The translations under genes were made by a program, and so were the position numbers. The notes under the pieces were generated by a model. It had not been told where the DNA came from, did not search any database, and saw nothing but the letters and a program-made list of their open reading frames with translations. Below are positions 9,519-55,559 of a stretch of DNA of 64,000 bases, in pieces. The stretch spans positions 288,001 to 352,000 of the forward strand of contig CAVUCU010000004.1 in the NCBI GenBank assembly GCA_963740085.1, read 5' to 3'. Within the stretch, counting starts at the first letter, position 1; each line of letters opens with the position of its first letter. The stretch comes from Nitrospirota bacterium. Its GTDB lineage: Bacteria > Nitrospirota > UBA9217.

Positions 9519-9519
9519 C

Positions 9520-30324: not shown

Positions 30325-30753
30325 TTAGTACCTTTTAGCTTTAAGAGAATTGATTAAATCCAATATATTTGTCATGATTTCATCCCGTGCTTTCCTGAAT
30401 GCTCCCAGGATCTCCTCTTCAGCACCTTTGGCTTGAACGGGGTCATCAATTGGCCACTGGATGCGTGCTATATGAGGAGGAGTAGTTGGACAAGATGCTT
30501 CTCCGTTTCCACAAAGTGTGATAATCATGTTCATCAAGTTTAAAATGTCATTGTCAATGTCCTTGGATTTTTGACCTGAAATATCTATTCCCAACTCATT
30601 CATGACACGAATCGCGTTTGGATGCACAATCCCTGCAGGCAGACTGCCTGCACTGAATGGAAATAAGACATCTTTGCCGAGCTTCTTGGCAAAGCCTTCC
30701 GCCATTTGGCTTCTAGAGGTGTTGCCAGTGCAGAGAAACATTATTTTAATCAT
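30325..30753 (-). CDS. arsC: Arsenate reductase, LMW-PTP (thioredoxin) type
   Basis: CTGNTSRSQMAEG, ITLC, SCP, WPIDDP. Confidence 0.88.
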   Translation of the reverse strand: MIKIMFLCTGNTSRSQMAEGFAKKLGKDVLFPFSAGSLPAGIVHPNAIRVMNELGIDISGQKSKDIDNDILNLMNMIITLCGNGEASCPTTPPHIARIQWPIDDPVQAKGAEEEILGAFRKARDEIMTNILDLINSLKAKRY

Positions 30754-31236: not shown

Positions 31237-31276
31237 CCCTTGAATTATTGTGAAGATAAATGTTATAAGTACGCTT

Positions 31277-31972
31277 ATGAATAATAAAATATTAATTGTC
31301 GATGATGAACCAGATATCGTTGAGCTTGTATCCTATAATCTAAAAAAAGACGGATTCAGGGTTACGACAGCTTCAGACGGCGAAGAGGCACTCAAGAAAA
31401 TCAGGAAAGACAAGTTTGATCTGGTAGTTCTTGACCTTATGCTTCCCGGTCTCCAGGGCGTGGAACTTTGCCGTATCATCAGGAATGATCCAAAGACGGC
31501 TAATACTCCCATTATCATGCTTACCGCGAAAGGGGAGGAAGTGGACAGGGTAATCGGCCTGGAAAGCGGCGCCGATGATTATATGACAAAACCGTTCGGT
31601 TCGAGAGAACTCATCGCGCGCATCAAAGCAGTTTTAAGAAGAACGGGAGAAAAAATCACAAAGGAAAAGACCATCCATATCGGCAAACTGTCCATCAATC
31701 TGGAAACCCACGGCGTTACAAAAGGCAAAGTTCCTCTGGAACTCAGCGCAACTGAATTTAACCTGCTTGTATATCTTGTCGAAAGAAAAGGAAAGGTATT
31801 TAGTCGAGAACAGCTTGTTGACGCAGTGTGGAAGGGAGAGGCTTTTATCGAGCCGAGGACCGTTGATGTCCATATCCGAAGACTGAGGACCCAGATCGAA
31901 GATAATTCATCCGATCCGACATACATAAAAACCCGTAGAGGTGTGGGGTATTATGTGGATACGGATTTATGA
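31277..31972 (+). CDS. phoB: PhoB/PhoP-type OmpR-family response regulator
   Basis: IVDDE, LDLMLPG, MLTAKGEEVDRVIGLESGADDY, RTVDVHIRRLR; next to phoR. Confidence 0.9.
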   Translation: MNNKILIVDDEPDIVELVSYNLKKDGFRVTTASDGEEALKKIRKDKFDLVVLDLMLPGLQGVELCRIIRNDPKTANTPIIMLTAKGEEVDRVIGLESGADDYMTKPFGSRELIARIKAVLRRTGEKITKEKTIHIGKLSINLETHGVTKGKVPLELSATEFNLLVYLVERKGKVFSREQLVDAVWKGEAFIEPRTVDVHIRRLRTQIEDNSSDPTYIKTRRGVGYYVDTDL

Positions 31973-33708
31973 AACGGCGAATCTTCGGTCGGATATTTTT
32001 GCTGTATGCGATCACTATTCTTGCCTCGATCGTGTTTATCGAATTCTTTATAACTAATGCCGTGAGAAGCAGTCATATTCATGATCTACGGGATCACCTC
32101 CTTTCTCAGGCAACGCTCATTTCCAATGACATCTCTTTTAAAGCCCAACCCCCTCTCGACAACATTTGCCGGCAGTTCAAGGAGCAAACCGGTTTCCGCG
32201 TGACGATAATCGCTCTCGATGGACTGGTTCTCGGGGATTCAGACTCGGATTCATCCCGCATGGATAATCACGCGGGTCGTCCCGAAGTTCAACAGTCTTT
32301 TCTGTATGGCACCGGCATGTCAGAACGACACAGCAAAACGCTGAATGAAGACTTGCTTTATGTCGCGAAAAAGGTCACGCGTGCCGGCCTGCCCATTGGT
32401 ATTGTCCGGCTCAGCATGCAGCTTACACAAGTAAATGCCTCGATCAACTCCCTGAGATTCAAGATTATCGGCGTAGTCATTGCGATCCTGATTGCCACGG
32501 GCTTGTTCTCGGTGGGACAGTTGGAGCGTATCAGGAGACTGACAAAGCAGATCGGAGACTTTTCGCGATCTCTCGCGGGCGGCGCAATCGGGAACAAGCT
32601 GTATTTTGACCGCGCCGGAGAGTTTGACGAAATAGCCATAAGCCTGAATACAATGTCGGAGGAACTGCAAAACAGTATTGCTGCGAACGAAGAGGAAAGA
32701 AAGAGACTGAACGTAATACTTCGGAGCATTCCCGATGTTCTTATGATACTCGAATCCAATGGTACTATCCAGCTTGCAAGCTCCGCTTCACGGCAGTATT
32801 TCGGAGAAGTCCCCTTGAAGGGAAGACAGGTTTTCGAGGTGATTCGAAATCCATTATTCCTGTCACTTATGGAAGAGGCTCGCAAGAATCTTATGCCCAG
32901 CGTCGGCGAATTGCGACTTGATAATCCGGAGGAAAGATATTTTTCCGCGATGGTTTCACCGCTTTCCTATAAGGAAGGGGAGTTATCCGGTTTTGTCGTC
33001 ATATTGCATGACATCACGCAGTTGAAAAAACTGGAGCAGACTCGAAAGGATTTTGTTGCGAACATATCTCACGAGATCAAGACGCCGATCACGGCCATCA
33101 AAGGTTTTGCCGATGCCCTGCTTGAAGGGGCGTTGCATGACGCAGACCATGCCGATAAATTTTTGAAGATCATCAGGTCGAACAGTGAACGGATCAACAG
33201 TCTTGTGGACGATCTTATGACGATCTCCAAAATAGAACTCGGTGTTGTCAGGATTGAGAAATCTCCGGTGGATGTCAAGGATGCTGTTGAACATGTCCTG
33301 GCTTTGCTGCGGTCAAAAGCAGCGGAAAAGAAGCTGTTCCTGAAAATGGATTTTCCCGCAGAACCTATAACTGTAATGGCTGACCGTGACAAGCTTATGC
33401 AAGTGTTTACGAACCTAGTGGACAATGCATTAAAATTCACCGAAACCGGCGGAGTGATGATCGGCGCACGGAGAGAAAACGATAAAACTTATCTGTACAT
33501 TGAAGACACAGGCATCGGAATTCCGGAGAAACACCTTTCGCGCATCGGAGAGAGATTTTACCGCGTGGACACCGCCAGATCGAGGAAGATGGGCGGCACC
33601 GGGCTGGGTCTTGCGATTGTCAAGCACCTGGTAAAGGCCCATGGCTGGGAGATGCAGATCGAGAGCAGGGAGGAAAAGGGCACAAAGGTGAAAGTGTATG
33701 TGGTTTAA
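31969..33708 (+). CDS. phoR: Phosphate-regulon sensor histidine kinase (HAMP, PAS, HisKA, HATPase)
   Basis: MDNHAGRPEV, RKDFVANISHEIKTP, ERFYRVDTARSRKMGGTGLGL. Confidence 0.9.
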   Translation: MKRRIFGRIFLLYAITILASIVFIEFFITNAVRSSHIHDLRDHLLSQATLISNDISFKAQPPLDNICRQFKEQTGFRVTIIALDGLVLGDSDSDSSRMDNHAGRPEVQQSFLYGTGMSERHSKTLNEDLLYVAKKVTRAGLPIGIVRLSMQLTQVNASINSLRFKIIGVVIAILIATGLFSVGQLERIRRLTKQIGDFSRSLAGGAIGNKLYFDRAGEFDEIAISLNTMSEELQNSIAANEEERKRLNVILRSIPDVLMILESNGTIQLASSASRQYFGEVPLKGRQVFEVIRNPLFLSLMEEARKNLMPSVGELRLDNPEERYFSAMVSPLSYKEGELSGFVVILHDITQLKKLEQTRKDFVANISHEIKTPITAIKGFADALLEGALHDADHADKFLKIIRSNSERINSLVDDLMTISKIELGVVRIEKSPVDVKDAVEHVLALLRSKAAEKKLFLKMDFPAEPITVMADRDKLMQVFTNLVDNALKFTETGGVMIGARRENDKTYLYIEDTGIGIPEKHLSRIGERFYRVDTARSRKMGGTGLGLAIVKHLVKAHGWEMQIESREEKGTKVKVYVV

Positions 33709-33795: not shown

Positions 33796-34512
33796 ATGAA
33801 AATCGGGGTACTCGGCGATGTTCACGGAAATATCGAAGCTCTTAAAGCCGCCTACAATTCGGCAGTTACCATGAAAGTCGACAAGCTTTATCATCTCGGT
33901 GATCTTGGCGGTTACGCGCCGTTCGTGAACGAAGTTGTGGATTTTATGATCGATCACGGCATCGAAGGTGTCCAGGGAAATTACGATGAGGCAGTGGCAA
34001 ATGACCGGGAGCACTGTGGTTGCAAGGCTGAGGAGCCTTTGCAGGAGGAGATGGCTCACCTGTCCTTTGTCTGGACAAAGGAGCACGTGTCTCCTGAGAG
34101 CAAGGCATACCTGAAGAACCTTCCTGCAGAAATAGAATTCACTGCTGAAGGCAAAAAGGTCTGGCTTTTTCATGCTACACCGAAAAAGAACAATCTCTAT
34201 TGGTTTGAAGACCGGCCGGAGAAGTTCTTCCGGGAAATGGCCGAAAAAGGTGAGGCTAGTATCATGATATACGGTCATATCCACAAACCATATCGGAAGG
34301 ACATCAATGGAAATATCTTCATCAACGCCGGCAGTGTGGGCAAGCCCAAGGACGGCGATCCGCGAGCCTGTGTAACGATCGTAGAGATAACGCCTGCGGC
34401 GGTGAGGACTGAGTTTATCCGTATACCCTATGATCTGGAAAAGGTTGCAGCCGCCATCAGTGCTAGCGGATTGCCTGAGTATTATGCAGAAAAGCTGAGG
34501 CGCGGTGCGTGA
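33796..34512 (+). CDS. Metallophosphoesterase (calcineurin-like, YfcE type)
   Basis: GDVHGN, HLGDLGGY, GNYD, HCGC, GHIH, NAGSVGKPKDGDPRA. Confidence 0.9.
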   Translation: MKIGVLGDVHGNIEALKAAYNSAVTMKVDKLYHLGDLGGYAPFVNEVVDFMIDHGIEGVQGNYDEAVANDREHCGCKAEEPLQEEMAHLSFVWTKEHVSPESKAYLKNLPAEIEFTAEGKKVWLFHATPKKNNLYWFEDRPEKFFREMAEKGEASIMIYGHIHKPYRKDINGNIFINAGSVGKPKDGDPRACVTIVEITPAAVRTEFIRIPYDLEKVAAAISASGLPEYYAEKLRRGA

Positions 34513-34558: not shown

Positions 34559-34987
34559 ATGGGAAAGGCAAAAGTGTTGTTTGTATGTGTTCACAACAGC
34601 GCCCGCAGTCAGATGGCAGAGACGTTTCTTAACTCTTTGGGCGGTGATAAATTCGTTGCAGAAAGTGCAGGATTGGCGCCGGGACCGTTGAACCCGGTTG
34701 TTGTTGAGGTCATGAAGGAGGTCGGGTTTGATATCTCAGGGAAGAAGACGCAAAGCGCCTTTGACTGCTTCAAGGCGGGCAAACGATATAACTACGTGAT
34801 AACGGTCTGTGATGAAACAAATGCCGAGCGATGCCCCATATTTCCTGGGCACGCGAAGAGGCTGCATTGGGGTTTTCCGGATCCCAGGGTGTTGGGAGGA
34901 AGCCATGAAGAAAAACTCAAGGGGATAAGAATAATCAGAGATCAAATAAGGGCCAAAATAGAGGGGTGGCTCTCGCAGGAACAATAA
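34559..34987 (+). CDS. arsC: Arsenate reductase, LMW-PTP type
   Basis: [31 protein letters not shown]. Confidence 0.9.
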
Positions 34988-35202: not shown

Positions 35203-35257
35203 TTTCATACAAATTTAACCAGCTTGTAACAAGTATGTAATCCAGGCATGGTAGTAT
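35203..35257 (+). promoter_or_regulatory. Four-unit PHO-box promoter of psiE
   Basis: tttcata/tttaacc/tgtaaca/tgtaatc at 35203/14/25/36; -10 tagtat at 35252. Confidence 0.8.
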
Positions 35258-35323
35258 CCTTTCACGCACGGTGGCCTCAGTAAATTGCGCATCGTCTCCT
35301 CAGGTCACGAAAGGACCTTACCC

Positions 35324-35749
35324 ATGAAATACTTAACGAAGATCGTCGACACTATGATCAAATTTATGATTCCGATGGTGATCATTGCCCTTTTGATGGG
35401 GATCGCTCGGGTCATTCTTGACCTTCGAGCAGTGTTTGGGAGCCAGACGCTGGCGTCCGCTTTTGACATGATCGTAACGAATATTCTTTCCATGTTCATC
35501 GTAATCGAACTGCTCAGGAGCCTCCTGGAATATTTCACTGTGCATCGTCTCAAGATTACGTTTATAACCGATGCGGCGCTGGTCTTTGTTCTGCGCGAGA
35601 TCATGATCGGGCTTTATGAGCATAAGATGGAATCCGGAATGATCATGGCGCTCGCATCCCTTATCCTGGTGCTCGGCGGCATCCGGACTCTCGCCGTGGT
35701 ATTTTCGCCAGAAAAATGCACTGATACCGATGAACTTAGCCATGCGTAA
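35324..35749 (+). CDS. psiE: Phosphate-starvation-inducible PsiE family membrane protein
   Basis: Four TM; FIVIELLRSLLEYF, DAALVFVLREI. Confidence 0.85.
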   Translation: MKYLTKIVDTMIKFMIPMVIIALLMGIARVILDLRAVFGSQTLASAFDMIVTNILSMFIVIELLRSLLEYFTVHRLKITFITDAALVFVLREIMIGLYEHKMESGMIMALASLILVLGGIRTLAVVFSPEKCTDTDELSHA

Positions 35750-38672: not shown

Positions 38673-38841
38673 ATTAATTGGAATATCACTTCCTCTTTAT
38701 ACTCCTGTAATGCCAACCTGTATCATCTACCCAATACCCGTTCGATCATCAGATTACTCCCGATGCCGAGCTGACAGGTTAAAACATTTAACAGAAATTT
38801 AACATTTCCGTAATACTGGTGACATATCCAGTATGTATAAT
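38673..38841 (+). promoter_or_regulatory. Tandem pair of four-unit PHO-box promoters
   Basis: Units 38673/84/95/706 with tatcat at 38721; units 38787/98/809/820 with tataat at 38836. Confidence 0.72.
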
Positions 38842-38873
38842 TATTGCATACTTAATAATGATGAGGTTAATAA

Positions 38874-39182
38874 ATGATGGATAAAACATGCAGTCTTAAG
38901 TGTCCCGCATGCGCCTCTGAAGCGGTATATAAATACGGCCACTTAAAAAATGGAAAGCAGCGCCTCAAGTGCATTTTGTGCGGAAGACAGTTTGTCATTG
39001 GTATTTCGAGGCATGAAATGAGCAATCGTCCAACCTGTCCCCGATGCGGCCTTAAGATGCACCTTTACATGCATGACAAAATGGCGTTGCGATTCAGATG
39101 TTCGGAATATCCTGATTGTAAATCATATATAAAAATCCCTTATCAAAAGGAGGTCACCTCATATGAAAAGCTATGTTCATAA
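38874..39182 (+). CDS. Double zinc-ribbon protein (InsA-N-like plus topoisomerase C4-like finger)
   Basis: CPAC…YKYG…GKQRLKCILCGRQF and CPRC…FRCSEYPDC. Confidence 0.75.
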   Translation: MMDKTCSLKCPACASEAVYKYGHLKNGKQRLKCILCGRQFVIGISRHEMSNRPTCPRCGLKMHLYMHDKMALRFRCSEYPDCKSYIKIPYQKEVTSYEKLCS

Positions 39183-39534
39183 TGTACCGGGAAGACTGCG
39201 GATAAAGAATGCCCTGTTTAAAAATGTCTCAATCCACTATGAAGTTCGAAAGGCCCTTGTGGATATGGGCCACGGCATCGGAGCCGCTGATTTCAATACG
39301 ACGACGGGCAGCCTTCTGATCAACTACAACCCGACAGAGGTCCATCATCAGGACATCCTGAGCGCCCTCGCGAGGGGAGGTTTTTATCATCCCGACAAAA
39401 CAATAACCAACGATCAGGTGATTCATCAGGCAACGTCCAAGGCATTCAATGTGGTAGCCAGGGCGGTTTCGGGGGCCTTCATCGACACTGCCCTGCAGGG
39501 CACTGGCTTGTCATTTCTGGCAATATTGCTATAA
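39163..39534 (+). CDS. HMA2-domain protein
   Basis: YVHNVPGRLRIK…NTTTGSLLINY; hydrophobic C-terminus; RBS aggagg. Confidence 0.82.
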   Translation: MKSYVHNVPGRLRIKNALFKNVSIHYEVRKALVDMGHGIGAADFNTTTGSLLINYNPTEVHHQDILSALARGGFYHPDKTITNDQVIHQATSKAFNVVARAVSGAFIDTALQGTGLSFLAILL

Positions 39535-39601: not shown

Positions 39602-40477
39602 TTGATGGCATCTCTATTCGAAAAAGTTGAAACGGCAAGCCGGGAGCATGACAATGCCAGATCAGGAGGTATGCCAGTGTCTCCGGAAATGTGCGACTCT
39701 GAATCGCATAGCTTCTCCCTGGCGATGCAAAGGAAGCTGGAGCGCTTTTATGACAGACTCAAGCCTTTTTGTGTAACAACCCTGGGAAGTACCGCCTGCC
39801 TTGAATTCCCCGTTGACTATCTTGAAACCCTAAACCGTCATAACGAAGCAACTATTCGCCGTAAGGAATGGGCTGAAATATATAAAAATCTCGGTGACGG
39901 AAAGCCGGAGTATGATCTTTGGCTGGACAAATATGAAAGCATTCTTCAAGATGCCGATGATTTGCCGATCATCGACCTTGGATGCGGCTATGGAAATGAC
40001 ACGCTCTATCTTCACGAAAGAGGATATAGGGTTGTTTCCTGTGATCTTTCGGCAGAGGCTCTCAAAAGGTTGACTTACTTCATCGCCGAGCCCGTGACAA
40101 AACAATTCGACATGCTGAACGGACTCCCTTTTGCAAAAGATTCGGCAAAGATTATCATCGCAGATCTCTCGCTGCACTATTTCTATTGGGAAGATACCAA
40201 AAGTGTCCTCAATGATATACGAAGGGTGCTCGTAAATGGCGGCCATCTTTTGTGCAGGGTTAATTCCATCAGGGATACGAGCCATGGGGCAGGACAGGGG
40301 CGACGCATAGAGAAAAACTATTTCGAGGTACAAGGTCGTCTAAAAAGGTTTTTTAACAGGGAATGCGTTGAAGATCTTTTCAAAGACTGGTCGATCGAGC
40401 ATATAAACGAGGCCCCCCTGTACAGATATGGGAAAGAGAAGATCCTCTGGGAAGTAGCCGTAAAAAAGGCGAGTTGA
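39602..40477 (+). CDS. Class I SAM-dependent methyltransferase with N-terminal extension
   Basis: IIDLGCGYG, SCDLS, ADLSLHYF; start uncertain. Confidence 0.85.
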   Translation: MMASLFEKVETASREHDNARSGGMPVSPEMCDSESHSFSLAMQRKLERFYDRLKPFCVTTLGSTACLEFPVDYLETLNRHNEATIRRKEWAEIYKNLGDGKPEYDLWLDKYESILQDADDLPIIDLGCGYGNDTLYLHERGYRVVSCDLSAEALKRLTYFIAEPVTKQFDMLNGLPFAKDSAKIIIADLSLHYFYWEDTKSVLNDIRRVLVNGGHLLCRVNSIRDTSHGAGQGRRIEKNYFEVQGRLKRFFNRECVEDLFKDWSIEHINEAPLYRYGKEKILWEVAVKKAS

Positions 40478-40965: not shown

Positions 40966-41226
40966 TTACAACTCCCGCGAATGGCCCCGCCGGCCTTCTA
41001 CGTCCGCTGTCGGCGTATTGTCACGCACAATGTCTTTTACCCTCTTTGAGACGAGCGCAGAGAGAAAGTATTTGATTCGCGCGGTCCGCGAATAATGCCT
41101 GAATACCATCCCATAGAGAGTCGATACGCGCTCCGTTGGCCGGTTCAGGCTCTGTGCAAGGTTTTCGATCGCGACCTGGTGATGACGTGGTCCAGACTCA
41201 ATATCCTGCAGAATACGTTTGTTCAT
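40966..41226 (-). CDS. Small DUF3562-like three-helix-bundle protein
   Basis: AIENLA…VSTLY…ARIKYFLSALVSKRVKD; ATGA overlap with CDF stop. Confidence 0.7.
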   Translation of the reverse strand: MNKRILQDIESGPRHHQVAIENLAQSLNRPTERVSTLYGMVFRHYSRTARIKYFLSALVSKRVKDIVRDNTPTADVEGRRGHSREL

Positions 41227-42194
41227 GTTTCGTTCCCCCTTTCTAATCCCAAGGGTTCTTGCCAACAGGACGCAGGCTGCAGAAGCATTTGATCCTGCTG
41301 AAAGCCCGGAGTGTGCGCGTCGTGCACCGTCGTTGGAATGTGCTGCTGTATTTCATAACCCTCTATATAAATATCATATAAGCCGAATTTACCCCGCAAT
41401 AATTTCTTCATCCGTCTCATCGTATCACGGCCATATCCAGAACCATTCGTCCTGATCCGTGCCACCAGGATGATCTTATCCGGTGAAAGACCCCAGATAT
41501 GTATGTCCTTGATATGATGTATTTCGGGGAAAGTCTGCTGCAGAAATCTGACGATATCATCTGCATCTATGTTTGCAGGACTCCCTTCCATGAGGATCTT
41601 GATGCTGTCCCTGACCAAAAAAAAGGTCGGATACGCTGCCAGGCATCCGATCAGGATGCCGGCAAGGGGGTCCACAAAATACAGATGGGTATACCGTATG
41701 ATGACGGCAGCACCGATGACGCCCACCGAACCCAGAGTATCGTTCAGGATAAGAAGCAGCGCCCCCTTGATGTTAACATCCTTTGAGTAGCGGTAGAGTT
41801 GCACAAGACCGAAGGCATTCGCCATGAGACCTACAACGGCAATCATGAGGACCTTGTCCGCTTCAATGGGCTGGGGGTGCAGGATTTTCTGGAAGGCTTC
41901 CGTAAAAACATAGAACAGGATGAAGCCGACCAATATCCCGTTAAACAGACCGGAAAGCACTTTAGCGCGTTCGTACCCGAAGGTGTTTACCTTGTCCGGC
42001 CGTCGGCGGACGATCCTGGTCACCCATAACGCGATGATCTGACCTGAGACATTGACGGCCATGAACGACGCGTCCGTCACGAGGGCGATGCTGTGATAAT
42101 AAAGCCCCCCGAACAATTCCACGAAGAAATAGGAGATTGTTACAACAAGAACGAGCGTCTGGCCTTTTACGTGCGTTTCTTCTGTCTCGTGCAT
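41223..42194 (-). CDS. Cation diffusion facilitator (CzcD/ZitB-like) with altered metal site
   Basis: TFGYERAKVL, DIHIW C-terminal domain; TM2 DASFMAVN, TM5 LLILND. Confidence 0.9.
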   Translation of the reverse strand: MHETEETHVKGQTLVLVVTISYFFVELFGGLYYHSIALVTDASFMAVNVSGQIIALWVTRIVRRRPDKVNTFGYERAKVLSGLFNGILVGFILFYVFTEAFQKILHPQPIEADKVLMIAVVGLMANAFGLVQLYRYSKDVNIKGALLLILNDTLGSVGVIGAAVIIRYTHLYFVDPLAGILIGCLAAYPTFFLVRDSIKILMEGSPANIDADDIVRFLQQTFPEIHHIKDIHIWGLSPDKIILVARIRTNGSGYGRDTMRRMKKLLRGKFGLYDIYIEGYEIQQHIPTTVHDAHTPGFQQDQMLLQPASCWQEPLGLERGNET

Positions 42195-42221: not shown

Positions 42222-43421
42222 TTATTCTTTCAAGAGAGAGGCCTTGTCAGTTAATTCCCAGGGCAGTCCGATATCCATTCTTCCTACATGACCGTACGCC
42301 GCGAGTTTACGATAAAAACCACCCTTGATCTGAGAGGGGAGGTGTCGAAGGTTGAACTGGCGTATGATCCCTGCCGGCCTAAAGTCGAAATGCTTCTGAA
42401 TAAGATCGGCGATGTTTTGATCAGATATTTTACCGGTCCCAAAGGTCTCTGCCTGGATGCTCACCGGTCGCGAAAATCCGATGGAATAGCTGAGCTGCAC
42501 CTCGCAGGCGGCGGCAAGTCCGGCTGCGACAACATTCTTTGCGGCATATCGAGCTGCATAGGCGCCGGTCCTGTCGATCCTTGAAGGGTCTTTCCCGCTC
42601 AAGGCTGCCCCGCTGATACGGGAGTATTCACCGTAGGTATCGATCGCGTTCTTTCTCCCGGTCAACCCTGAGTGCATGGCAGGACCGCCGCCGATAAAGG
42701 GTCCGTCGGGATTGATGAAGATCCGGGTGTGCTTATCAGGCTTGATCTCCTCGTCCTGAAAAACAGGACTCAGCACCGTTTCCCGGATATCGTCCTGGAG
42801 CCGTTTGGCATCGGGCCCCCCTTTGGGGGCCGTCCGCTTTTGGCTTGCAATAATGGTAATGCTGTGAACACGCGACGGTCTGCCGTCACGATATTCAATG
42901 CCGACCTGGGTCTTGCCGTCGGGCGCAAGATAGTCGAGCGTCTTCTGAAGCCGCACGGCCACAAGCTTCCTGGCAAGACGATGGGCGAGCCAGATGGGAA
43001 GCGGCATGAAGGCCGCGGTCTGATTGCAGGCAAAGCCGAACACCGTTACCTGGTTACGTGCAAGGATGCGTTCGATAACTTCCTCGGTCAGGGTACGTTC
43101 ATCGACCGACAAACTGCCGCCCGTAGGCACCTCGGTGAGGCTTGTTATGACGCTGCAGGTCTTTGCATTAAAGGCCCGCTCGTCATAGTCGACCTGGCTT
43201 ATGACCTGCCGGGCGATATTGGCATAATCGATCTTGGCCGAGGTGGCAAACCGCGCTGCGATGAAGACAATGGCCGTGGAAACAGCGCACTCGGCAATGA
43301 TATTCGCATAAGGGTCCTGCTGCAGAACATGATCGACGATCGCATCACTGATGATATCACAGAGCTTGTCAGGGTGGCCTTCGGTAACTGATTCCGAGGT
43401 GAACATGAAGTCCGTTTTCAT
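42222..43421 (-). CDS. metK: Methionine adenosyltransferase-like protein (divergent MetK paralogue)
   Basis: FTSESVTEGHPDK, PDGKTQV, GLTGRK, SGKDPSRIDR; GAGDQG motif replaced by ARNQV. Confidence 0.88.
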   Translation of the reverse strand: MKTDFMFTSESVTEGHPDKLCDIISDAIVDHVLQQDPYANIIAECAVSTAIVFIAARFATSAKIDYANIARQVISQVDYDERAFNAKTCSVITSLTEVPTGGSLSVDERTLTEEVIERILARNQVTVFGFACNQTAAFMPLPIWLAHRLARKLVAVRLQKTLDYLAPDGKTQVGIEYRDGRPSRVHSITIIASQKRTAPKGGPDAKRLQDDIRETVLSPVFQDEEIKPDKHTRIFINPDGPFIGGGPAMHSGLTGRKNAIDTYGEYSRISGAALSGKDPSRIDRTGAYAARYAAKNVVAAGLAAACEVQLSYSIGFSRPVSIQAETFGTGKISDQNIADLIQKHFDFRPAGIIRQFNLRHLPSQIKGGFYRKLAAYGHVGRMDIGLPWELTDKASLLKE

Positions 43422-43448: not shown

Positions 43449-46400
43449 TCAGGTAACTGCGAAAACTTGATTTCCGTGCAATAACGGAACCGGTGTCGTT
43501 GAACTGCCATTCAGCGCAAACGGCGGAGCAGCTTTCTTCTTTGTCGCTTCATTGATGAGCAGCGGAGCGACAGCGGTCCCGATCGAAATCGCCAGGTCAA
43601 AGGGATTCAGCGGGCCCATTCCCAGGAAGCTCCGGAGGCCTGGAACGAACAGGGTAAGCGACTGTACTCCCAGCGAGGCTGTCAGGGCGACGGTAAGATA
43701 GTTGTTCGGTGCGAGCCGGTCAGCCTCAAAGATGCTATGGGTCTCGGAACGGTGGCTGATCGCGTGCAACAGCCCTGCCGTTACGAAGTTTGTGAAGGCC
43801 ATGCTGCTGGCCTGGGGACCCTGCCCGTAACGAAGGACACCGTAGCCGTATGCAGCCAGCGTCCCCGCAGAGATGGTGGACGCCTCGAAGAGAAGCCGTT
43901 TGAAGTCAGACGAATTGATAAGCTGCTCCTCGGGACTTCGCGGAGGCCGCAGAAGCACGTCGGGTTCAGGGGGCTCTTGGGCAAGGGCTATGCCGGGGAA
44001 GATGTCAGAGATCATGTTGATCCAGAGAAGCTGCATGACATTGAACGGCTGTCCCATGCCCGCGGCAAGAGAGGTGAACATGATCATGATCTCGGCCGTG
44101 TTCTTTGAGATCATGTATCTCACGGATTTTCGGAGATTGTTGTAAATCGTCCGCCCTTGGCTGATGGCCACGACCATGGTCTCGAGATTATCATCCTCGA
44201 GAACCACGTCCGCCACCTCTCGCGCCACATCGGTTCCCGTGTGACCCAGGGCGATCCCGATATCGGCTGCCTTGAGCGCGGGTCCGTCGTTGATGCCGTC
44301 TCCGGTCATGCCGATGACCTTTCCCGCTGACTGGAGCGCCTGGACGATCTGAAGTTTGTTTGCCGGGCTCACTCGTGAAAAGACATGCACCCGCCCGGCC
44401 AGAGCCTTCATTACCTCTGGTTCAAGCTGTGCGAGGTGAGTGGAATCAAGGATCTCCAATTCCTCGTCATTGCTGAGATTAAGTTCTTTCCCGATGGCAT
44501 AGGCAGTGGGACCCTGGTCCCCGGTAATCATCACCGTGTCGATCCCCGCTCGGTGGAACGTACTGATCAGGTTCTTAACACCCTTTCGCACCGTATCCGC
44601 CATACCGACGAGGCCGACCCAGACAAGTCCCTGCTGGAGGATCTCTTCGCTTTTTCTTGTGCTTTCGTCGCTCACCGCGTAAGTGACGGCAAGAACCCGG
44701 AGCGCTTCGCCGGCCATACGTTCATTATTCGCTTCGAAGACCGCGCGGGCATTGTCGTCCATTTCCAGTTGCCGGCCGTCCTTGATGTACCATTTGCATA
44801 GTGACAATACATCGGAGGGACTCCCCTTGAGGGCCAGAAGCCGCTGCCGGTCATTCGAACGGTGTATGGTGCTCATATACTGCCGGTCTTCCGATCGGTA
44901 GTTCAACTTCACGATCGGGTGCTGGGCCCGAAGCGAGTTGACATCCACACCGGCGCTGAGCGCAAGGTTCACGAGGGCGTTTTCCGTCGAGGAGCCCTCG
45001 ACGACGTAATCTCCTTCCAATTCTGATACTATCGATTCATTACAAAGCACCGACAGATGGAGCAGACGGAGGACATCCTCGTTCGTATAGGGATTGATGT
45101 TTTTCCCTTCCGCCATGATCCTGCCGTCAACAACATCGAGACGGCGCATGCCGGCATGCAACTGGACCACAGACATCTTGTTCATGGTGATTGTGCCGGT
45201 TTTGTCAAGACAGATGGTCTCGACCGAACCGAGCGTTTCGACGGCGTCAAGGTGACGGACGAGCACGTTCAGTCCCCTCATGCGCTTGATGCCGAGCGCG
45301 AGGGTCGTCGTCGTAACGGTCGGTAGCCCCTCAGGCACTGCGGCCACGGCCAGGGCAATGGAGGTCTTGAGCATCTGGAGAAAACCGTAACCGCGCAGAA
45401 TGCCTACAATGAACACGATGCCGCATACGGCGCAGGTGATATACACCAACTGGACCCCCAGGTGGTCCATCTGCCGTTCCAAGGGCGTATCGGGCGGCCG
45501 CGCCTCTCCCACCATGGTCTGGATCTTTCCGACCTCGGTAAATCGCCCTGTAGCCACGGCGACGGCGAGGCCTTGTCCTCCCGTGACCAGTGTGCCCATA
45601 TAGACCATGTTGGTGCGGTCGGCAAGGGGGATGTCCGGCACATGCAGTTCTTCGGTGGTTTTCATTACCGGCATGCTCTCGCCCGTCAATGCGGACTCAT
45701 CAATGCTCAGGTATTTTGCCTGTATGAGACGGGCGTCGGCCGCAATATAGCTTCCCGGTCTCAGTACGAGCATCTCGCCGGGAACGACCTCCTTGGCATC
45801 AATGGTCGTGATGACTCCGCCGCGGAGCACTATTGACGAAGGCTGTACGAGGCTCTTTAACCCATGGATGATCTTTTCCGTTTGGTTCTCGGTGTAATAC
45901 CCGATGGAGGAATTAATAACGACCACCCCCATGATCACGACGGCATCCGCAAATCCGCCTGTAGCAACGGAAATGCCCGCGGCAACACCAAGGAGAGCTA
46001 CGGGAAGGGACTTGAACTGATCGAAGAACATGCTCCAGCCGGAGCGGGGAACGGATTCGGGCAGAATGTTGGGACCATATTGGATGAACAAAAGACGGGC
46101 TGCTTCTTCGGACAGGCCTTCTGACGCCGAGGTGCCCCATCGCTGCAGCACATCCTTCCCTTCCATGCAGTGCCATTGCTCTTCCTGCTGGTCTTCGGCA
46201 TTGGCAACCTGTTTGCGAACGGTCCGCAGGCTAGGCGTTTTCTTGCCAGCAGTGGTAAGGTCGGGAGAGACGTCGGCGCGCACGGGCCGGACAACAACTG
46301 TTTCTTTCTTCTGCGACACAGCAGGGAACGGGTTTTTCTTCCCCTTGACCGGCTTGCCATTTTTGCGTTCGACTACGGACTTCAGGAGGGAAGCTACTGC

Positions 46401-46595
46401 TGATGCATGGTTGCCGTTCTGTGAATCGAACAGCACGAGAACGCTGCCCGTGAGGGTATTGATCGAAACGCTCAGGATCCACTTGTGCTGTGTGAGATGC
46501 TGCTCGATCCGCTGTTTCAACTGCTCTGAGCGATAAAGACCCTCTACCTTATAACGGGCCCGCCCTTTTACCGACGTATGAACGGCTTGGACCAC
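43449..46595 (-). CDS. P2A-type (Ca2+-like) P-type ATPase with N-terminal HMA2-like domain
   Basis: TGES, VPEGL, DKTGT, TGDGIND, TM5 SKNTAE, TM6 WINMISD; N-terminus HTSVKGRARY…NTLTGSVLV. Confidence 0.93.
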   Translation of the reverse strand: MVQAVHTSVKGRARYKVEGLYRSEQLKQRIEQHLTQHKWILSVSINTLTGSVLVLFDSQNGNHASAVASLLKSVVERKNGKPVKGKKNPFPAVSQKKETVVVRPVRADVSPDLTTAGKKTPSLRTVRKQVANAEDQQEEQWHCMEGKDVLQRWGTSASEGLSEEAARLLFIQYGPNILPESVPRSGWSMFFDQFKSLPVALLGVAAGISVATGGFADAVVIMGVVVINSSIGYYTENQTEKIIHGLKSLVQPSSIVLRGGVITTIDAKEVVPGEMLVLRPGSYIAADARLIQAKYLSIDESALTGESMPVMKTTEELHVPDIPLADRTNMVYMGTLVTGGQGLAVAVATGRFTEVGKIQTMVGEARPPDTPLERQMDHLGVQLVYITCAVCGIVFIVGILRGYGFLQMLKTSIALAVAAVPEGLPTVTTTTLALGIKRMRGLNVLVRHLDAVETLGSVETICLDKTGTITMNKMSVVQLHAGMRRLDVVDGRIMAEGKNINPYTNEDVLRLLHLSVLCNESIVSELEGDYVVEGSSTENALVNLALSAGVDVNSLRAQHPIVKLNYRSEDRQYMSTIHRSNDRQRLLALKGSPSDVLSLCKWYIKDGRQLEMDDNARAVFEANNERMAGEALRVLAVTYAVSDESTRKSEEILQQGLVWVGLVGMADTVRKGVKNLISTFHRAGIDTVMITGDQGPTAYAIGKELNLSNDEELEILDSTHLAQLEPEVMKALAGRVHVFSRVSPANKLQIVQALQSAGKVIGMTGDGINDGPALKAADIGIALGHTGTDVAREVADVVLEDDNLETMVVAISQGRTIYNNLRKSVRYMISKNTAEIMIMFTSLAAGMGQPFNVMQLLWINMISDIFPGIALAQEPPEPDVLLRPPRSPEEQLINSSDFKRLLFEASTISAGTLAAYGYGVLRYGQGPQASSMAFTNFVTAGLLHAISHRSETHSIFEADRLAPNNYLTVALTASLGVQSLTLFVPGLRSFLGMGPLNPFDLAISIGTAVAPLLINEATKKKAAPPFALNGSSTTPVPLLHGNQVFAVT

Positions 46596-46650: not shown

Positions 46651-47379
46651 TTAAGCCCGTTGCGACTTCGGCAGGGCGGTGCCAGCGACTTCTTTCACGC
46701 CTTCTACAACGCCGACCAGCATGTCCTTGACCGCCTTGACGGCTGTGTTGCCGATCAAAGATGCCGCATCGATCGCGCCCGTGACAGCAACCTTTGCAAC
46801 CTCCTCTGCATTCCCACCGACTTCCTTCGTGGCTTCGATCACGCCGTCTACGGCCCGCCGGGCAACCATGGCTACATCCGCACCGACCTCGGCCGCACCC
46901 TTGACAGCTCCTCTGACGGTCTGGCCTGCAACGGAAATCACGTCGCCGCCAACATCGCTCACTCCCATGATCACCCCTTTTGCAACGCTCTTGGTGCTCA
47001 GGATGAGGCCGGTGCCGACCTCTTCAGTAGCCTGAATGGCGCCCTTGACCACATCTTTCGTGATGTCAATTGCTTCGCCGGCGACCATGCCGGTTGCCCG
47101 CAGCGAATTGGAAACGGTGTTCCTGACAAGGCTGACTATCTCTGCTTCGATCTCGTTGATCCCCTTGAGACTGCTCACGACGCCCTCTTTCACGGTAGAG
47201 CCTGCTTTGCCGATGTCCTGGGCTGAAAATACAACTTCCGTGGCCTCTGCGCTTGTCATGTCTGTTCCTCCTCTTGTAGTCTTCGTTGTTGAGACTAGAT
47301 CATCCGATTTTGATGACGTGCCGCGCGGACTACGTTTCACGGACTTCTTCGTCGGCGCTTTTTGTTTTTGGTCACTCAT
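46651..47379 (-). CDS. 22-aa amphipathic repeat protein with basic N-terminal tail
   Basis: KGAIQATEEVG…/KGVIMGVSDVG…/RGAVKGAAEVG…/DGVIEATKEVG…/TGAIDAASLIG at 22-aa period. Confidence 0.8.
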   Translation of the reverse strand: MSDQKQKAPTKKSVKRSPRGTSSKSDDLVSTTKTTRGGTDMTSAEATEVVFSAQDIGKAGSTVKEGVVSSLKGINEIEAEIVSLVRNTVSNSLRATGMVAGEAIDITKDVVKGAIQATEEVGTGLILSTKSVAKGVIMGVSDVGGDVISVAGQTVRGAVKGAAEVGADVAMVARRAVDGVIEATKEVGGNAEEVAKVAVTGAIDAASLIGNTAVKAVKDMLVGVVEGVKEVAGTALPKSQRA

Positions 47380-47556: not shown

Positions 47557-48045
47557 TTATTTCTTTTCGCCTTCTTTCACTATCTTTGAGTGGAGATTAT
47601 AAGCGTACCAGTACGCCGAGGACCACGGGATGGCCCCTCCATTCCCCGTCAGAATCTGCGCACTACCCGCCACAATCAGGGCTGCAACTGCAAAACCGCG
47701 CAGATCCATATCGCCGTCCGTGAGGTTCTGTATCTGCCGATCAATGCGCTTGAACGTCTCGCCAAGGTTTCGGTTAAGTTCTGCAGGGCGTACCCTGGAA
47801 CTCTTTTGTTCCTCTAAGGAAAAAAGATCCCCCGACCTTGCATACTCCGCAATCTCACGCACTGTCGTTTGGTGAAGCAAGAGTATACTCCCCGTACCCG
47901 GGTTCACCTCGATGGAGAGAACACCCGGACAAGCGGCAAGCTGATCCCCGTATGACTTCAGTGCCGCTAGGTTGCCTTTTTGTGAGGGGACCCTGATCCG
48001 TAATCTCCCGGTTGAAGTATGGGCGATGACGGCAGCCGGGATCAT
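47557..48045 (-). CDS. HMA2-domain membrane protein
   Basis: AHTSTGRLRIRVP…VNPGTGSILL; C-terminal TM with PW…YWY. Confidence 0.82.
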   Translation of the reverse strand: MIPAAVIAHTSTGRLRIRVPSQKGNLAALKSYGDQLAACPGVLSIEVNPGTGSILLLHQTTVREIAEYARSGDLFSLEEQKSSRVRPAELNRNLGETFKRIDRQIQNLTDGDMDLRGFAVAALIVAGSAQILTGNGGAIPWSSAYWYAYNLHSKIVKEGEKK

Positions 48046-48392
48046 GACGTGGCTGGCCTGGGCCTGCGTTTGGAGATTGCAGCCGTTACTGCAACCGGTG
48101 CCGCAGCCGGTGCCGCAACCGTGTCATTCACCGCTTCTGCTGCAGCCGCAGTCGTCTCGGCCAGTTCCGCCTTAGCTTCAGCCACAATATCTTCCGTAAT
48201 TTCAGCGATCTCGGCAAAGGCTTCCTTGCCGCGTTCATACATCTGCATACCTCCTTTTATCGCGGCTTTTGCCAGCGGCTTTGCGATCGTGGCAAACAGA
48301 GGAATGACTACGGGCGCCAGTACTGCGGCGCCGATACCGATTGCCAAACCGGTAATAAGACTACCTTTCAATCCACTATCTAACAGTCCCAT
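48042..48392 (-). CDS. DUF5132-like GxxxG membrane protein
   Basis: GLAIGIGAAVLAP…KPLAKAAIKGG…EDIVAEAKAE; Ala/Pro linker, basic tail. Confidence 0.82.
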   Translation of the reverse strand: MGLLDSGLKGSLITGLAIGIGAAVLAPVVIPLFATIAKPLAKAAIKGGMQMYERGKEAFAEIAEITEDIVAEAKAELAETTAAAAEAVNDTVAAPAAAPVAVTAAISKRRPRPATS

Positions 48393-48503: not shown

Positions 48504-48899
48504 TTACGCTTCAACACGGTTTTTTTTTGGTGCTTTCATGCGTGCCCTGGAGCCAGTCTTTGAACGCTTTGCAATGCTCTTGCCCTCGAGTATCCCGATC
48601 TGCGCTTCAAGGTCCTTGATTCGGGCCATGATCTCTTTGACACCTGCATTGAGAGCAGGGTTTTTGGCTTTGGCACTGCTTATGAGAACATACGTCTTGG
48701 CGCCGAGGTCGGTAATCGCTTCGTGGATCCGTGTCTTGAGTGTCAATACCTTGTACTGACGTTTCTTTTCTTTCGTGAGTTCCCCGGCTTTCTTCTGCAT
48801 CTCGACGGCGCCTTGTTTCACTGCCGCCATGCTTTTTTCCAGCCCTTGTTGCACGTCTTTTTTTATCTTGTTCCAGTTGAAGCCTTCCAAATATCCCAT
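48504..48899 (-). CDS. Helical coiled-coil protein with basic C-terminal tail
   Basis: RBS aggagg; amphipathic N-terminus, heptads, KRSKTGSRARMKAPKK tail. Confidence 0.72.
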   Translation of the reverse strand: MGYLEGFNWNKIKKDVQQGLEKSMAAVKQGAVEMQKKAGELTKEKKRQYKVLTLKTRIHEAITDLGAKTYVLISSAKAKNPALNAGVKEIMARIKDLEAQIGILEGKSIAKRSKTGSRARMKAPKKNRVEA

Positions 48900-49272
48900 T
48901 CGGTAACCTCCTGTAGTATGGAATGCTCAATTCATAAGTTAGAAGTATAGCACGCAAGAGTGTTTCTGGTAGTGAGATCATTAATAAACTTAAGGATGAA
49001 GTAAAAAAATAGCAGTGAGTGTATAAAATAACAGACAACTTGAAATGTAAATCTGGGACAAGAGCAAAAAATCTTGGACACGGATAAAGATGGAGTTTGT
49101 TATGAAAAGGCTGGATTACGTTATTGATTCATCCGCTTTGGTCACGGCCTGTTATCTGATTTTCTCCGTCGTGCCAGCGCTTATGAGTGTGTGTGCGAGG
49201 CAGGGTGTGTCAAAGATCTATTTTTTTGTCTGCTGCTGAGGGCCGCACCATAATCTTGGTATAATAGTATTT

Positions 49273-53711: not shown

Positions 53712-55559
53712 ATGATGAATCAAGTACAGACAACCCGGATCTTCAACCTCAACCTTGCTTTCAGAGGCCCGTTGCAGAACAGACTTCTTTCACTGGTTAA
53801 GGGGCCGATTGAACATGTCATTGGTTTGCAACGGTTGAACCTTTTTTACGATGACGTAAGCAGGATGCCTGACAAACGTCCGTTCCCGGACAAGGTCCTG
53901 GATCGCTTGGGCGTGCTCTACGATATTCCTGAAGAGGACCTCTCGCGGGTCATGATTCCCAAAGGTCCTGTGATCGTTGTGGCAAATCATCCCTTTGGGC
54001 TCATAGAAACCGTTATCCTTGCTTCGATCCTACGCTCGATGCGCTGCGATGTCAAGTTCATGGCAAACTCTCTGTTGAACGCGATACCGGAAATACGGGA
54101 CTTATTGATATCCGTGAATCCTTTTCCGGGAAAGACTTCGGTGCGAGACAACATCAGGCCGCTCAGAGAATCCATCCAATGGGTCAGGAACGGAGGCATG
54201 CTCGTGGTATTTCCCGCTGGCACGGTCTCTCACTTTGGTGCACGGAAAGGCGTCATCACCGATCCTGAATGGAGCCTGAGTATAGCGCGCATTATCAGGA
54301 AAACCGGGGCGCCGGTGCTTCCGGTGTTCTTTCAGGGGACGAACAGCGCGGCATTTCATATAGCGGGCATGGTACATCCTGTTCTTCGCACGGTCATGCT
54401 GCCGAATGAACTGTTTAACAAGAACAGCAGAAAGATTCAGGTGCGCGTCGGCGATCTTGTGCCAATTGGGAAGTTAGAGTCCTTTGATCAGGATGACGAT
54501 ATGACTGCGTACCTGCGGTTGCGAACTTATATACTGGAGTATCGCGGCCATAAAGAAGAAGTGCCCAGCATTGGGGCATTTATTCGAAAGGCAAAAACCG
54601 AGGCGTTTGGCGAGATCATGCCGCCCCAGAACCCGGAAGTCATGGCCGAGGAGATCCGCAGGCTGATGCCGAGCCAGACACTCGTTGAGAGCAACGAGCA
54701 TGTCGTGATCCAGGCGACGACCGACCAGATACCTCACCTCATGCTCGAGATCGGCAGGCTGCGGGAGGTCACCTTCCGTGTCGTGGGCGAGGGGACGGGA
54801 AAGGCTGTTGATATTGACCGGTTCGATAGCTCCTATACCCATCTCTTTATCTGGAATCGGGTAAAAAAAGAAGTGGTCGGCGCCTATCGCCTCGGCAGGA
54901 CCGATGAGATCATCAGACAAAAGGGAGTGAGCGGCCTTTACACGAGTTCCTTATTTCGTTATAAACCAGGATTTTTCGAACAGATGGGGCCTGCTCTGGA
55001 AATGGGACGGTCCTTTATCCGGCTGGAATACCAAAAATCCTTTGCACCTCTCCTGCTTCTCTGGAAAGGCATCGGCAGATTCGTTGTCGAAAACCCGCAA
55101 TATAAAACCCTCTTTGGTCCCGTAAGCATCAGTGATGAGTACCGGCAGCTGTCAAGGCAACTTCTGGTCAGTTACCTGAAAATGACCCGGTACCGCAGCG
55201 ATATGGCCGGCTTCGTCAAACCCAAAAATCCCTTACTTGCAAAACCGCTAAAAGGCTGGGACATCGATGCCGCGGTCCGGCTTCTGAAGGACGACGTGGA
55301 GAACATATCGGAGTTGATCTCCTGCGTGGAATCAGACCGCAAAGGCGTCCCGATCCTGCTGAAGCAATATCTCAAGCTGGGTGGCGAGATCGCGGGTTTC
55401 AATGTCGATACCGCATTCGGAAATGTCGTTGATGGTCTGATCATCGTCGATTTGACGAAAACTGAACCGCGAATACTGGATCGGTACCTTGGCAAGGACG
55501 GCGCCCGCATGTTTCTTGACCATCATGAAGCAATGAAACGGGATTGTCTTGTCGCCTGA
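53712..55559 (+). CDS. PlsC acyltransferase fused to GNAT N-acyltransferase, OlsF-like bifunctional aminolipid synthase
   Basis: NHPFGLIE and FPAG (PlsC); GRLREVTFR, DIDRFD, LEMGRSF (OlsB-like). Confidence 0.85.
   Translation: MMNQVQTTRIFNLNLAFRGPLQNRLLSLVKGPIEHVIGLQRLNLFYDDVSRMPDKRPFPDKVLDRLGVLYDIPEEDLSRVMIPKGPVIVVANHPFGLIETVILASILRSMRCDVKFMANSLLNAIPEIRDLLISVNPFPGKTSVRDNIRPLRESIQWVRNGGMLVVFPAGTVSHFGARKGVITDPEWSLSIARIIRKTGAPVLPVFFQGTNSAAFHIAGMVHPVLRTVMLPNELFNKNSRKIQVRVGDLVPIGKLESFDQDDDMTAYLRLRTYILEYRGHKEEVPSIGAFIRKAKTEAFGEIMPPQNPEVMAEEIRRLMPSQTLVESNEHVVIQATTDQIPHLMLEIGRLREVTFRVVGEGTGKAVDIDRFDSSYTHLFIWNRVKKEVVGAYRLGRTDEIIRQKGVSGLYTSSLFRYKPGFFEQMGPALEMGRSFIRLEYQKSFAPLLLLWKGIGRFVVENPQYKTLFGPVSISDEYRQLSRQLLVSYLKMTRYRSDMAGFVKPKNPLLAKPLKGWDIDAAVRLLKDDVENISELISCVESDRKGVPILLKQYLKLGGEIAGFNVDTAFGNVVDGLIIVDLTKTEPRILDRYLGKDGARMFLDHHEAMKRDCLVA

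Follow-up and report, generated by a model that had tools for sequence, protein, structure and literature searches.

A MetK-like protein with a retained triphosphate site and a remodelled methionine pocket, encoded beside a calcium-type P-type ATPase

Here we describe a gene of the MetK family that lies in a 64,000-nucleotide (nt) stretch of a Nitrospirota genome (GenBank assembly GCA_963740085.1, contig CAVUCU010000004.1, positions 288,001 to 352,000; hereafter the window), directly behind the gene for a calcium-type P-type ATPase. MetK, the methionine adenosyltransferase (MAT) that makes S-adenosylmethionine (SAM), is among the most conserved enzymes. The MetK-like protein of the window represents a sister family of MetK that keeps the triphosphate half of the active site, drops the methionine half and travels with one kind of calcium-type pump.

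The MetK-like gene and its operon

Positions 42222-43421 are exactly one open reading frame (ORF) on the minus strand, stop codon included, and a Shine-Dalgarno-like GGAGAG lies 8 nt 5' of the start codon (Table 1). The three MetK Pfam domains (PF00438, PF02772 and PF02773) are all found in the product, with E values from 1e-32 to 4e-55. It is 40-44% identical to canonical MetK, and its nearest relatives of solved structure are bacterial MetKs, at about 40%. An AlphaFold2 model, made from an alignment with 28 relatives, has a mean pLDDT (predicted local distance difference test score) of 85.4 and matches solved MetKs in Foldseek with TM (template modelling) scores of 0.84-0.88, as for E. coli 1FUG/7LL3 and L. 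plantarum 7R3B. A first-pass annotation of this DNA, made by eye, had called the gene a metK paralogue and proposed looking for a canonical metK elsewhere. The label is right, because the genome (98.5% complete) has a second, canonical metK on contig C1. Against TIGR01034, the NCBIfam metK equivalog, the canonical protein scores 604.3 bits, 228 above the 375.8 bits of the MetK-like copy.

The operon runs on the minus strand in the order DUF5132, CoBaHMA, helical-repeat, pump, MetK-like, CDF and DUF3562, with gaps of at most 177 nt and two overlaps, and its first five genes recur across phyla. HMA_2 is the Pfam name of CoBaHMA (10.1101/2024.07.07.602159). The helical-repeat protein has no Pfam or NCBIfam match. 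The CDF gene follows the MetK-like gene in 7 of the 20 loci of the first genome scan, that is, in some lineages only.

Table 1. Genes and features of the window; first-scan loci are the 20 loci of the first genome scan
Feature	Position	Strand	Remarks
PhoB-like regulator and PnpS/PhoR-like kinase	31250-33708		Regulator 278.9 bits, cut-off 296
YfcE-type phosphodiesterase	33796-34512		
PsiE	35285-35749		
Convergent small unit	38787-39534	+	Pho-box-like triple repeat 38787-38815; zinc-ribbon gene 38874-39182; 123-aa CoBaHMA gene 39163-39534
DUF3562 protein, 99 amino acids (aa)	40966-41265	-	Last operon gene; Pfam 1.6e-6; overlaps end of CDF gene; also 3' of MetK-like gene in L012, L022, L023
CDF-family cation efflux transporter, 323 aa	41223-42194	-	Cation_efflux 2e-39; TIGR01297 183.7 bits; 27 nt 3' of MetK-like gene
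MetK-fold paralogue, 399 aa	42222-43421	-	ATG start; Mg-triphosphate/metal site retained, methionine pocket remodelled (R55, V98, R117, N118, H238, R269)
P2-type (calcium-type) P-type ATPase, 1048 aa, N-terminal CoBaHMA (HMA_2)	43449-46595	-	Ends 27 nt ahead of MetK-like start codon
242-aa protein, basic N-terminus, Val/Gly/Ala-rich helical repeats	46651-47379	-	Same-position relatives in 11/20 first-scan loci and many later ones
CoBaHMA (HMA_2) protein, 162 aa, hydrophobic C-terminal part	47557-48045	-	N-terminal GRLRIRV; Pfam 8.6e-14, full length; 11/20 first-scan loci
DUF5132 protein, 116 aa, hydrophobic N-terminus	48042-48392	-	Pfam 8.3e-13; stop overlaps next start by 4 nt; conserved in 12/20 first-scan loci
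OlsF-like ornithine-lipid synthase (phosphorus-free lipid)	53712-55559		
pstS	59200-60120		

Active site and family of the MetK-like protein

Residues were compared in a MAFFT alignment of E. coli K-12 MetK, the canonical MetK of the genome and the MetK-like protein, and are numbered as in E. coli MetK without Met1. The ligands H14, D16, E42, D163, K165, F230, R244, K245, K265 and D271 are retained. At the methionine side, GGE has become AAR (E55R), and the gating loop KQ98SPDI reads TEVPTGG and is five residues longer (Q98V, S99P, I102 to G). GAGD118QG reads LARNQV (G117R, D118N, G120V), GGPMGD238 reads GGPAMH (D238H), and K269 is replaced by arginine. The first-pass annotation had named H14/D16, D163/K165, R244/K245, K265 and D271 as kept and E55, Q98, GAGDQG, D238 and K269 as changed; every one of these assignments stands in the MAFFT alignment, in which the methionine-binding residues are altered, not conserved. 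Further changes that it had not listed are HGGGAF to ISGAAL, T227D, S99P, G253E, G258S and F262L, together with a seven-residue insertion, LPSQIKG, just ahead of the C-terminal helices.

The roles of these residues are known from canonical MetKs. D238 and E55 bind the methionine amino group, Q98 and K269 its carboxylate and I102 its side chain, while D163 and D238 bind the ribose hydroxyls, F230 stacks on adenine and H14 is the catalytic acid (PMC3853416, section 8); the roles given in PMC1282579 are consistent with these. The human equivalents of the methionine ligands include Glu70, Gln113 and Asp258, and human Ser247 hydrogen-bonds adenine N1 (PMC6850014). The methionine-binding functions that the first-pass annotation had given for E55, Q98, D238 and K269 agree with these three sources.

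A search of 5.8 billion proteins gave 120 listed clusters at 74-97% identity to the MetK-like protein; the named ones come from Nitrospirota metagenome-assembled genomes (MAGs), and the database names are SAM synthetase or methionine adenosyltransferase. Conservation was assessed in 129 clade members (the query, P0002-P0121 and eight cross-phylum loci) against seven canonical sequences. Among the 129, H238, R269, S258 and L262 are invariant, R55 and N118 are each found in 127, R/K117 and V120 each in 126, a hydrophobic residue at position 98 in 125 and D or E in place of T227 in 127. The retained ligands, with F230, D163, K165 and H14 among them, are present in 127-129. Because the changed residues are fixed across the 129 clade members, they do not represent chance drift. 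We also compared columns between 151 paralogue and 75 canonical representatives; the canonical ones were defined by E55, D118, D238, K269 and H14, so that those columns are circular. Eleven positions differ between the two groups while being conserved to 90% or more within each, and 61 are common to both. The remodelled gating loop carries an invariant acidic motif, D107-E108.

More distant members were counted in a set of 81 diverse sequences with H238, set against 109 canonical sequences defined by D238 alone. The triphosphate and metal site is present almost throughout the 81: H14 in 78, D16 and K17 in 80 each, E42 in 79, R244 in 80, K245, K265 and R272 in all, D271 in 77 and D163 in 78. 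R269 accompanies H238 in 80 and a basic residue occupies position 55 in 74, and D118 is found in 109 of the 109 canonical sequences. H238, R269 and L262 form the signature of the family, and position 55 is usually basic as well.

An exhaustive search of representative sequences, which gave 17,684 proteins, was used to place the family. Of the best 150 matches, 106 were aligned, the 44 outside 360-470 aa being left out; 16 of the 106 have H238, 15 of them also R269, and these grouped with the query clade in a FastTree phylogeny (20 tips, support 0.72). A larger tree held 190 sequences (75 canonical representatives, 13 divergent representatives, 28 from genomes and 74 from metagenomes). In it a single branch, with an SH-like support of 1.0 and a stem of 0.29, parts the 81 H238 sequences from the 109 with D238/K269; the groups are named by residue 238, and the tree itself was built on the whole trimmed alignment. 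The alignment and phylogeny against bona fide MetK that had been proposed at first pass thus split the paralogues from the canonical enzymes. Judged by this tree, the MetK-like protein is a member of a distinct, monophyletic, multi-phylum sister family of MetK.

The family comprises over 100 sequence clusters, from six or more groups at phylum level. Its bacterial carriers include Nitrospirota, Desulfuromonadales, Geobacteraceae, Syntrophobacteraceae, Desulfobacteraceae, Dissulfurispiraceae, Acidobacteriota, Pirellulales and other Planctomycetota, one gammaproteobacterial MAG and, among cyanobacteria, Chlorogloeopsis fritschii PCC 6912, Rivularia, Leptolyngbyaceae and Oscillatoriales. In the window's own lineage the distribution is patchy, with the gene in 7 of 40 relatives searched, among them 2 of 8 from the same genus. 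Identity this high between phyla suggests that the MetK-like gene has spread horizontally. A canonical metK stands alongside it in 6/6 carrier genomes checked (this one and 5/5 others; one is split over contig ends). For the deep-branch protein P0133 there is no close genome relative among the matches listed, the best being 47% identical.

The P2-type ATPase and the phosphate-starvation setting

The ATPase that precedes the MetK-like gene contains the Pfam domains E1-E2_ATPase, Cation_ATPase_N/C, Hydrolase and, at residues 4-63, HMA_2; its first 150 residues hold this CoBaHMA domain and a basic/acidic linker that ends in WH. Its top NCBIfam matches are the PMR1-type (610 bits) and SERCA-type (532 bits) calcium ATPases, both under cut-off, and heavy-metal P1B models score far lower. 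Among proteins of solved structure it is closest to human SPCA1 (499.7 bits) and Listeria LMCA1 (463.5 bits); aligned with these, the protein retains the PEGLP motif and the N..D of transmembrane segment 6.

This gene order is kept at nearly all the loci compared. The first genome scan comprised 20 loci, of which L013, L014 and L022 begin at a contig edge and were left out of the adjacency count; the ATPase lies directly 5' of the MetK-like gene in all 17 loci with upstream flank. Among the 80 loci listed for P0133 an ATPase adjoins the MetK homologue (at least 53% identity to the query) in 22/22 cases, as against 0/58 for canonical-like metK, where L054 has an unrelated ATPase about 4 kb off on the other strand. 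The metagenome contigs listed include 42 with H238/R269, 39 of them with upstream flank; the ATPase is adjacent in 35 of these and about 0.6-1.2 kb away in three, while canonical metK in the metagenome loci listed has an adjoining ATPase in 0/36. In the reverse direction, a MetK-like gene lies 3' of 24 of 25 relatives of the ATPase (at least 49% identity, with downstream sequence). Loci L012, L016, L019, L020 and L023 show a 4-nt overlap between the stop of the ATPase gene and the start of the MetK-like gene. Even in the deep-branch locus L203, whose protein has Q165 and no F230, the MetK-like gene is found 60 nt behind a P2 ATPase. The complete genome of C. fritschii PCC 6912 carries two pump and MetK-like pairs; in the second (L199, 3177-8039) the match to the ATPase shifts to another frame at about residue 948, with some 640 nt between it and the MetK-like gene. 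The idea, put forward at first pass, that the protein serves the adjacent ATPase system is well supported by this near-invariant adjacency across phyla.

At loci L139, L142, L150 and L151, which belong to a sister clade of CoBaHMA-headed P2 ATPases, a gene of the Na/Ca-exchanger family (about 6150-7230) fills the slot of the MetK-like gene, with DUF5132 and CoBaHMA-hairpin genes still upstream; this supports calcium as the cargo of the module. In a separate observation, the pump relative at L062 (1545-2300) has what appear to be two tandem CoBaHMA-like N-terminal units, with 252 residues aligning to the first 150 of the query.

Several apparent physical links between the two proteins were considered and rejected. 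A 1237-aa ORF in L203 that seemed to join ATPase and MetK is an artefact: its upstream part is another frame of the ATPase gene, and Pfam finds MetK domains alone. The singleton pump and MetK-like hybrids P0285, P0286, P0307 and P0397 were dismissed as Rosetta-stone evidence on account of deletions or breaks across the junction; three have in-frame deletions there, each at a different place, and P0397 stops after about 100 MetK-like residues. These hybrids may be assembly artefacts or decaying copies. A motif in the C-terminal tail of the pump was likewise discarded as a docking motif for the MetK-like protein, as it is conserved only among close Nitrospirota.

The operon lies among genes of the Pho regulon (Table 1), which suggests a role for the pump module in handling cations or phosphate when phosphate is limiting. 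From two pstS upstream regions we derived an 11-bp-periodic pattern, TKTAACA-N4-TKTAACA, which is probably the Pho box of this organism. It occurs 13 times in the window (sites between 27692 and 59076), compared with 0.66 expected. The sites lie 5' of the phoB-like gene (31080, 31208), psiE (35214-35242), a hybrid kinase gene (57653) and pstS (59037-59076), and also 5' of the zinc-ribbon and CoBaHMA unit (38787-38815), there with 0 and 2 mismatches. The boxes and the small CoBaHMA gene are shared with loci L004-L009 and L011. In L012 and L023 the main operon begins with the small CoBaHMA gene, which is preceded by such boxes, and in several other relatives boxes lie 0.1-1 kb upstream.

Some further features of the neighbourhood were noted. 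A direct repeat, TGTCCAAGATT / TGTCCCAGATT, with a spacing of 20 nt, is found at 49050-49080 on the minus strand, 5' of the gene for a 131-aa coiled-coil protein (48504-48899) that precedes the operon; the TGTCCAAGATT / TGTCCCAGATT repeat differs from the Pho-box pattern and could be the site of another regulator. Next to the small CoBaHMA gene lies a class I SAM-dependent methyltransferase gene (39602-40477, plus strand) with weak TehB and ArsM-like matches; among the relatives only the closest, L007, shares it, and it is probably not part of the module. ArsC-like genes (thioredoxin-type arsenate reductase or low-molecular-weight phosphatase), both under the family cut-off, are found at 30325-30753 (minus strand) and 34559-34987 (plus strand), and in L019 an ArsC-like gene (9246-9725, 65% identical) lies directly 3' of the MetK-like gene. 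A link of the module to arsenic was rejected, as neither the ArsC-like genes nor the methyltransferase are conserved with the pump and MetK-like pair.

Possible functions and comparison with known systems

We infer that the MetK-like protein no longer makes SAM. The first-pass annotation had already argued that it is not a SAM synthase, and this is well supported by the family-wide loss of methionine ligands, the coexisting canonical metK and the literature on MAT mutants (PMC6850014). It had also pointed to the intrinsic tripolyphosphatase activity of MAT; according to the mutants described in PMC6850014, this phosphatase activity is independent of, and separable from, SAM formation. Patient variants of human MAT-alpha1, including Asp258Gly and Lys289Asn, have lowered SAM and unaffected phosphatase, MAT-alpha2 Ser114Ala keeps 2.5% of SAM synthesis with phosphatase unchanged, and mutations in the E. 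coli gating loop bring SAM formation down more than 200-fold and leave hydrolysis of inorganic tripolyphosphate (PPPi) the same (PMC6850014). Shared motifs suggest that human D258, K289 and S114 correspond to E. coli D238, K269 and S99. That the protein is instead a divergent SAM synthetase isozyme, with an unusual methionine pocket and co-expressed with the pump, we regard as very improbable: it scores above the TIGR01034 equivalog cut-off, is annotated in databases as SAM synthetase or methionine adenosyltransferase and has a predicted fold that is intact, but the charges that bind the amino group of methionine are inverted or lost through E55R and D238H, Q98, S99 and GAGDQG are gone, substitutions at the human counterparts of D238, K269 and S99 reduce SAM formation or do away with it (PMC6850014), 6/6 carrier genomes checked have a canonical metK and the clade stands apart from all canonical sequences with a support of 1.0.

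On balance we think it probable, with moderate confidence, that the MetK-like protein serves the pump and that it binds a triphosphate moiety, which it probably also hydrolyses. The residues that hold the amino and carboxyl groups of methionine have been replaced and the gating loop remodelled, while the half of the site that binds Mg/K and triphosphate is retained; with it the protein would keep the second MetK half-reaction or at least its binding site. The ligand could be inorganic tripolyphosphate, the end of a polyphosphate or a nucleotide triphosphate, recognized as its Mg-triphosphate moiety. Acting in the cytoplasm as an accessory to the pump, the protein might use this triphosphate chemistry to supply or remove PPPi, pyrophosphate (PPi) or phosphate (Pi) at the pump, or might sense phosphate-anhydride status. 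The wider clade favours such a triphosphate-centred role, tripolyphosphatase-like or as a sensor, over adenosyl transfer, because the triphosphate ligands are kept in 77-81 of the 81 diverse sequences, the aromatic residue (F/Y) that stacks on adenine at 230 in only 40 (compared with 109/109 canonical sequences) and K165 in 66. The protein of L203, pump-linked without F230 or K165, likewise suggests that the constant feature is the Mg-triphosphate site and not the adenosine site.

Several observations weigh against this interpretation. The protein passes the TIGR01034 cut-off of 309.4 bits. Within its triphosphate loop, residues 255-272 form the lone low-confidence stretch of the model (pLDDT below 50), and the changes G253E, G258S and F262L in the same loop may affect PPPi binding. 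F230, D163, K165 and H14 are all present in the window's protein and its close relatives, so that nucleotide binding, and perhaps even adenosyl transfer, may occur here. As to the pump, L238 has no ATPase 5' of the MetK-like gene and a shorter P-type ATPase about 340 nt 3' of it, and L130 is an ATPase without a MetK-like partner. The sister clade of CoBaHMA-headed P2 ATPases, at 44-47% identity and represented in Desulfotignum among others, is without a MetK-like gene, which makes the MetK-like partner specific to one pump lineage. A full-length intact fusion of ATPase and MetK was not found in a search of longer proteins and loci, and that the MetK-like protein physically associates with the pump we infer from synteny only. 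Finally, no Pho-box-like dimer with up to four mismatches is present here in the intergenic regions 5' of the genes that make up the main operon; boxes do precede the operon in some relatives, and Pho control of the MetK-like gene in the window is at most plausible.

A rather unlikely alternative is that the protein is a catalytically silent sensor or scaffold. The MetK-fold dimer would then bind ATP, PPPi or polyphosphate but turn none of them over, and would control or cluster the pump, for instance by way of the pump's CoBaHMA head, so reporting phosphate or energy status. The strict adjacency and the stop/start overlaps suggest equal stoichiometry with the pump, the CoBaHMA domain has a conserved basic surface that is thought to bind anionic partners (10.1101/2024.07.07.602159; PMC8890360), the remodelled gating loop carries the invariant acidic D107-E108, and the setting is Pho-related. 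All the metal ligands and the catalytic His are, however, conserved, which is seemingly more than binding needs, and the sister ATPase clade has the CoBaHMA head without the MetK-like partner.

We give a smaller chance, and a low one, to an adenosyltransferase for another, probably anionic, nucleophile, in which the C5' of ATP would be attacked and PPPi released, with the acceptor held in a basic pocket (R55, R/K117, H238, R269). H14, the ribose ligand D163, K165 and F230 are kept here and in 127-129 of the 129 close relatives; the replacement of T227 by D or E falls at the position of human Ser247, which contacts adenine N1 (PMC6850014), and basic residues take the place of the acidic ligands of the methionine amino group. 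These arguments are countered by the wider pump-linked clade, where the aromatic residue at 230 and K165 are often missing and the triphosphate ligands remain, by L203, which is still pump-linked without either, and by the operon, in which no biosynthetic or acceptor-related gene is conserved among the loci compared.

Returning to a triphosphate site that serves the pump, a more specific and more doubtful proposal can be made. The MetK-like protein might be a stoichiometric cytoplasmic subunit that couples cation pumping to phosphate-anhydride chemistry through the ancestral tripolyphosphatase site, within a phosphate-starvation-induced and possibly compartment-forming (ferrosome- or calcium-granule-like) system. 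In such a subunit the MetK-like site would generate PPPi, PPi or Pi at the pump or take them away, or would read polyphosphate status. If true, this would be the first SAM-synthetase fold recruited as a pump accessory.

To our knowledge, no non-SAM function has been described for the MetK fold, and a literature search gave none either. No MetK-like and pump family was found in that full-text search, in which papers were judged by title and abstract; Gaschignard et al. 2024, on CoBaHMA, may bear on novelty. The word 'adenosylmethionine' is absent from the CoBaHMA papers that were term-searched, including 10.1101/2024.07.07.602159 and PMC8890360, and from the ferrosome preprint. The 'metK2' of PMC8092242 was rejected as a precedent, as it is an ordinary Halorhodospira SAM synthetase. 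The automatic naming of these proteins as methionine adenosyltransferase is probably wrong, and because they pass the TIGR01034 cut-off and get that name, metabolic reconstructions may over-count SAM synthases. The family would offer a natural experiment that parts the two half-reactions of MetK. It would also open to testing a so far undescribed pump module, which shares parts with candidate calcium-carbonate granule genes, resembles ferrosome clusters and lies, here, amid phosphate-starvation genes.

The module resembles the ferrosome (fez) clusters, with FezA, FezB and FezC, in gene layout: both have a P-type ATPase and small membrane proteins, one of them HMA-like. FezC combines an HMA domain with two transmembrane segments and an N-terminal RxR-type motif (bioRxiv 10.1101/2020.01.10.902569); the motifs here are GRLRIRV and GRARYKV. 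In contrast, FezB is a P1B-6 ATPase with DYSCA and HNxxT motifs, while the pump described here matches P2 calcium ATPases best, and fez-type DUF4405, FeoA or ferritin-like genes are absent here. A second likeness is to the neighbourhood of ccyA (calcyanin) in Microcystis aeruginosa PCC 7806, where DUF5132 and CoBaHMA-hairpin proteins surround a calcium transporter; their genes neighbour ccyA and are co-expressed with it (10.1101/2024.07.07.602159). In the window, CoBaHMA (PF19991) and DUF5132 proteins similarly adjoin a predicted calcium transporter, and the same set is found in other phyla. The transporter here is, however, a P2 ATPase with its own CoBaHMA head and not a CAX exchanger, and no calcyanin was seen, no search having been aimed at it. 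The carrier C. fritschii PCC 6912 has ccyA and no intracellular carbonate granules, while its sister strain PCC 9212 forms granules (10.1101/2024.07.07.602159; PMC8890360).

With canonical MetK (MAT, EC 2.5.1.6) the MetK-like protein shares the three-domain fold and the triphosphate and metal ligands H14, D16, E42, K165, R244, K245, K265 and D271. It differs in the absence of E55, Q98, S99, D238, K269 and GAGDQG, in its longer, acidic gating loop and in the seven-residue C-terminal insertion, and its gene is a second copy beside canonical metK in the genomes checked, near-invariably next to a P-type ATPase. The MetK-like protein most plausibly works like the tripolyphosphatase-only variants of MAT (MAT-alpha1 D258G, K289N and others, MAT-alpha2 S114A and the E. 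coli gating-loop mutants; PMC6850014), which are altered at the positions of D238, K269 and S99 and in the gating loop. Whereas those are loss-of-function mutants, the changes in the MetK-like family are fixed, co-ordinated, conserved across phyla and joined by the new conserved residues R55, H238 and D107-E108.

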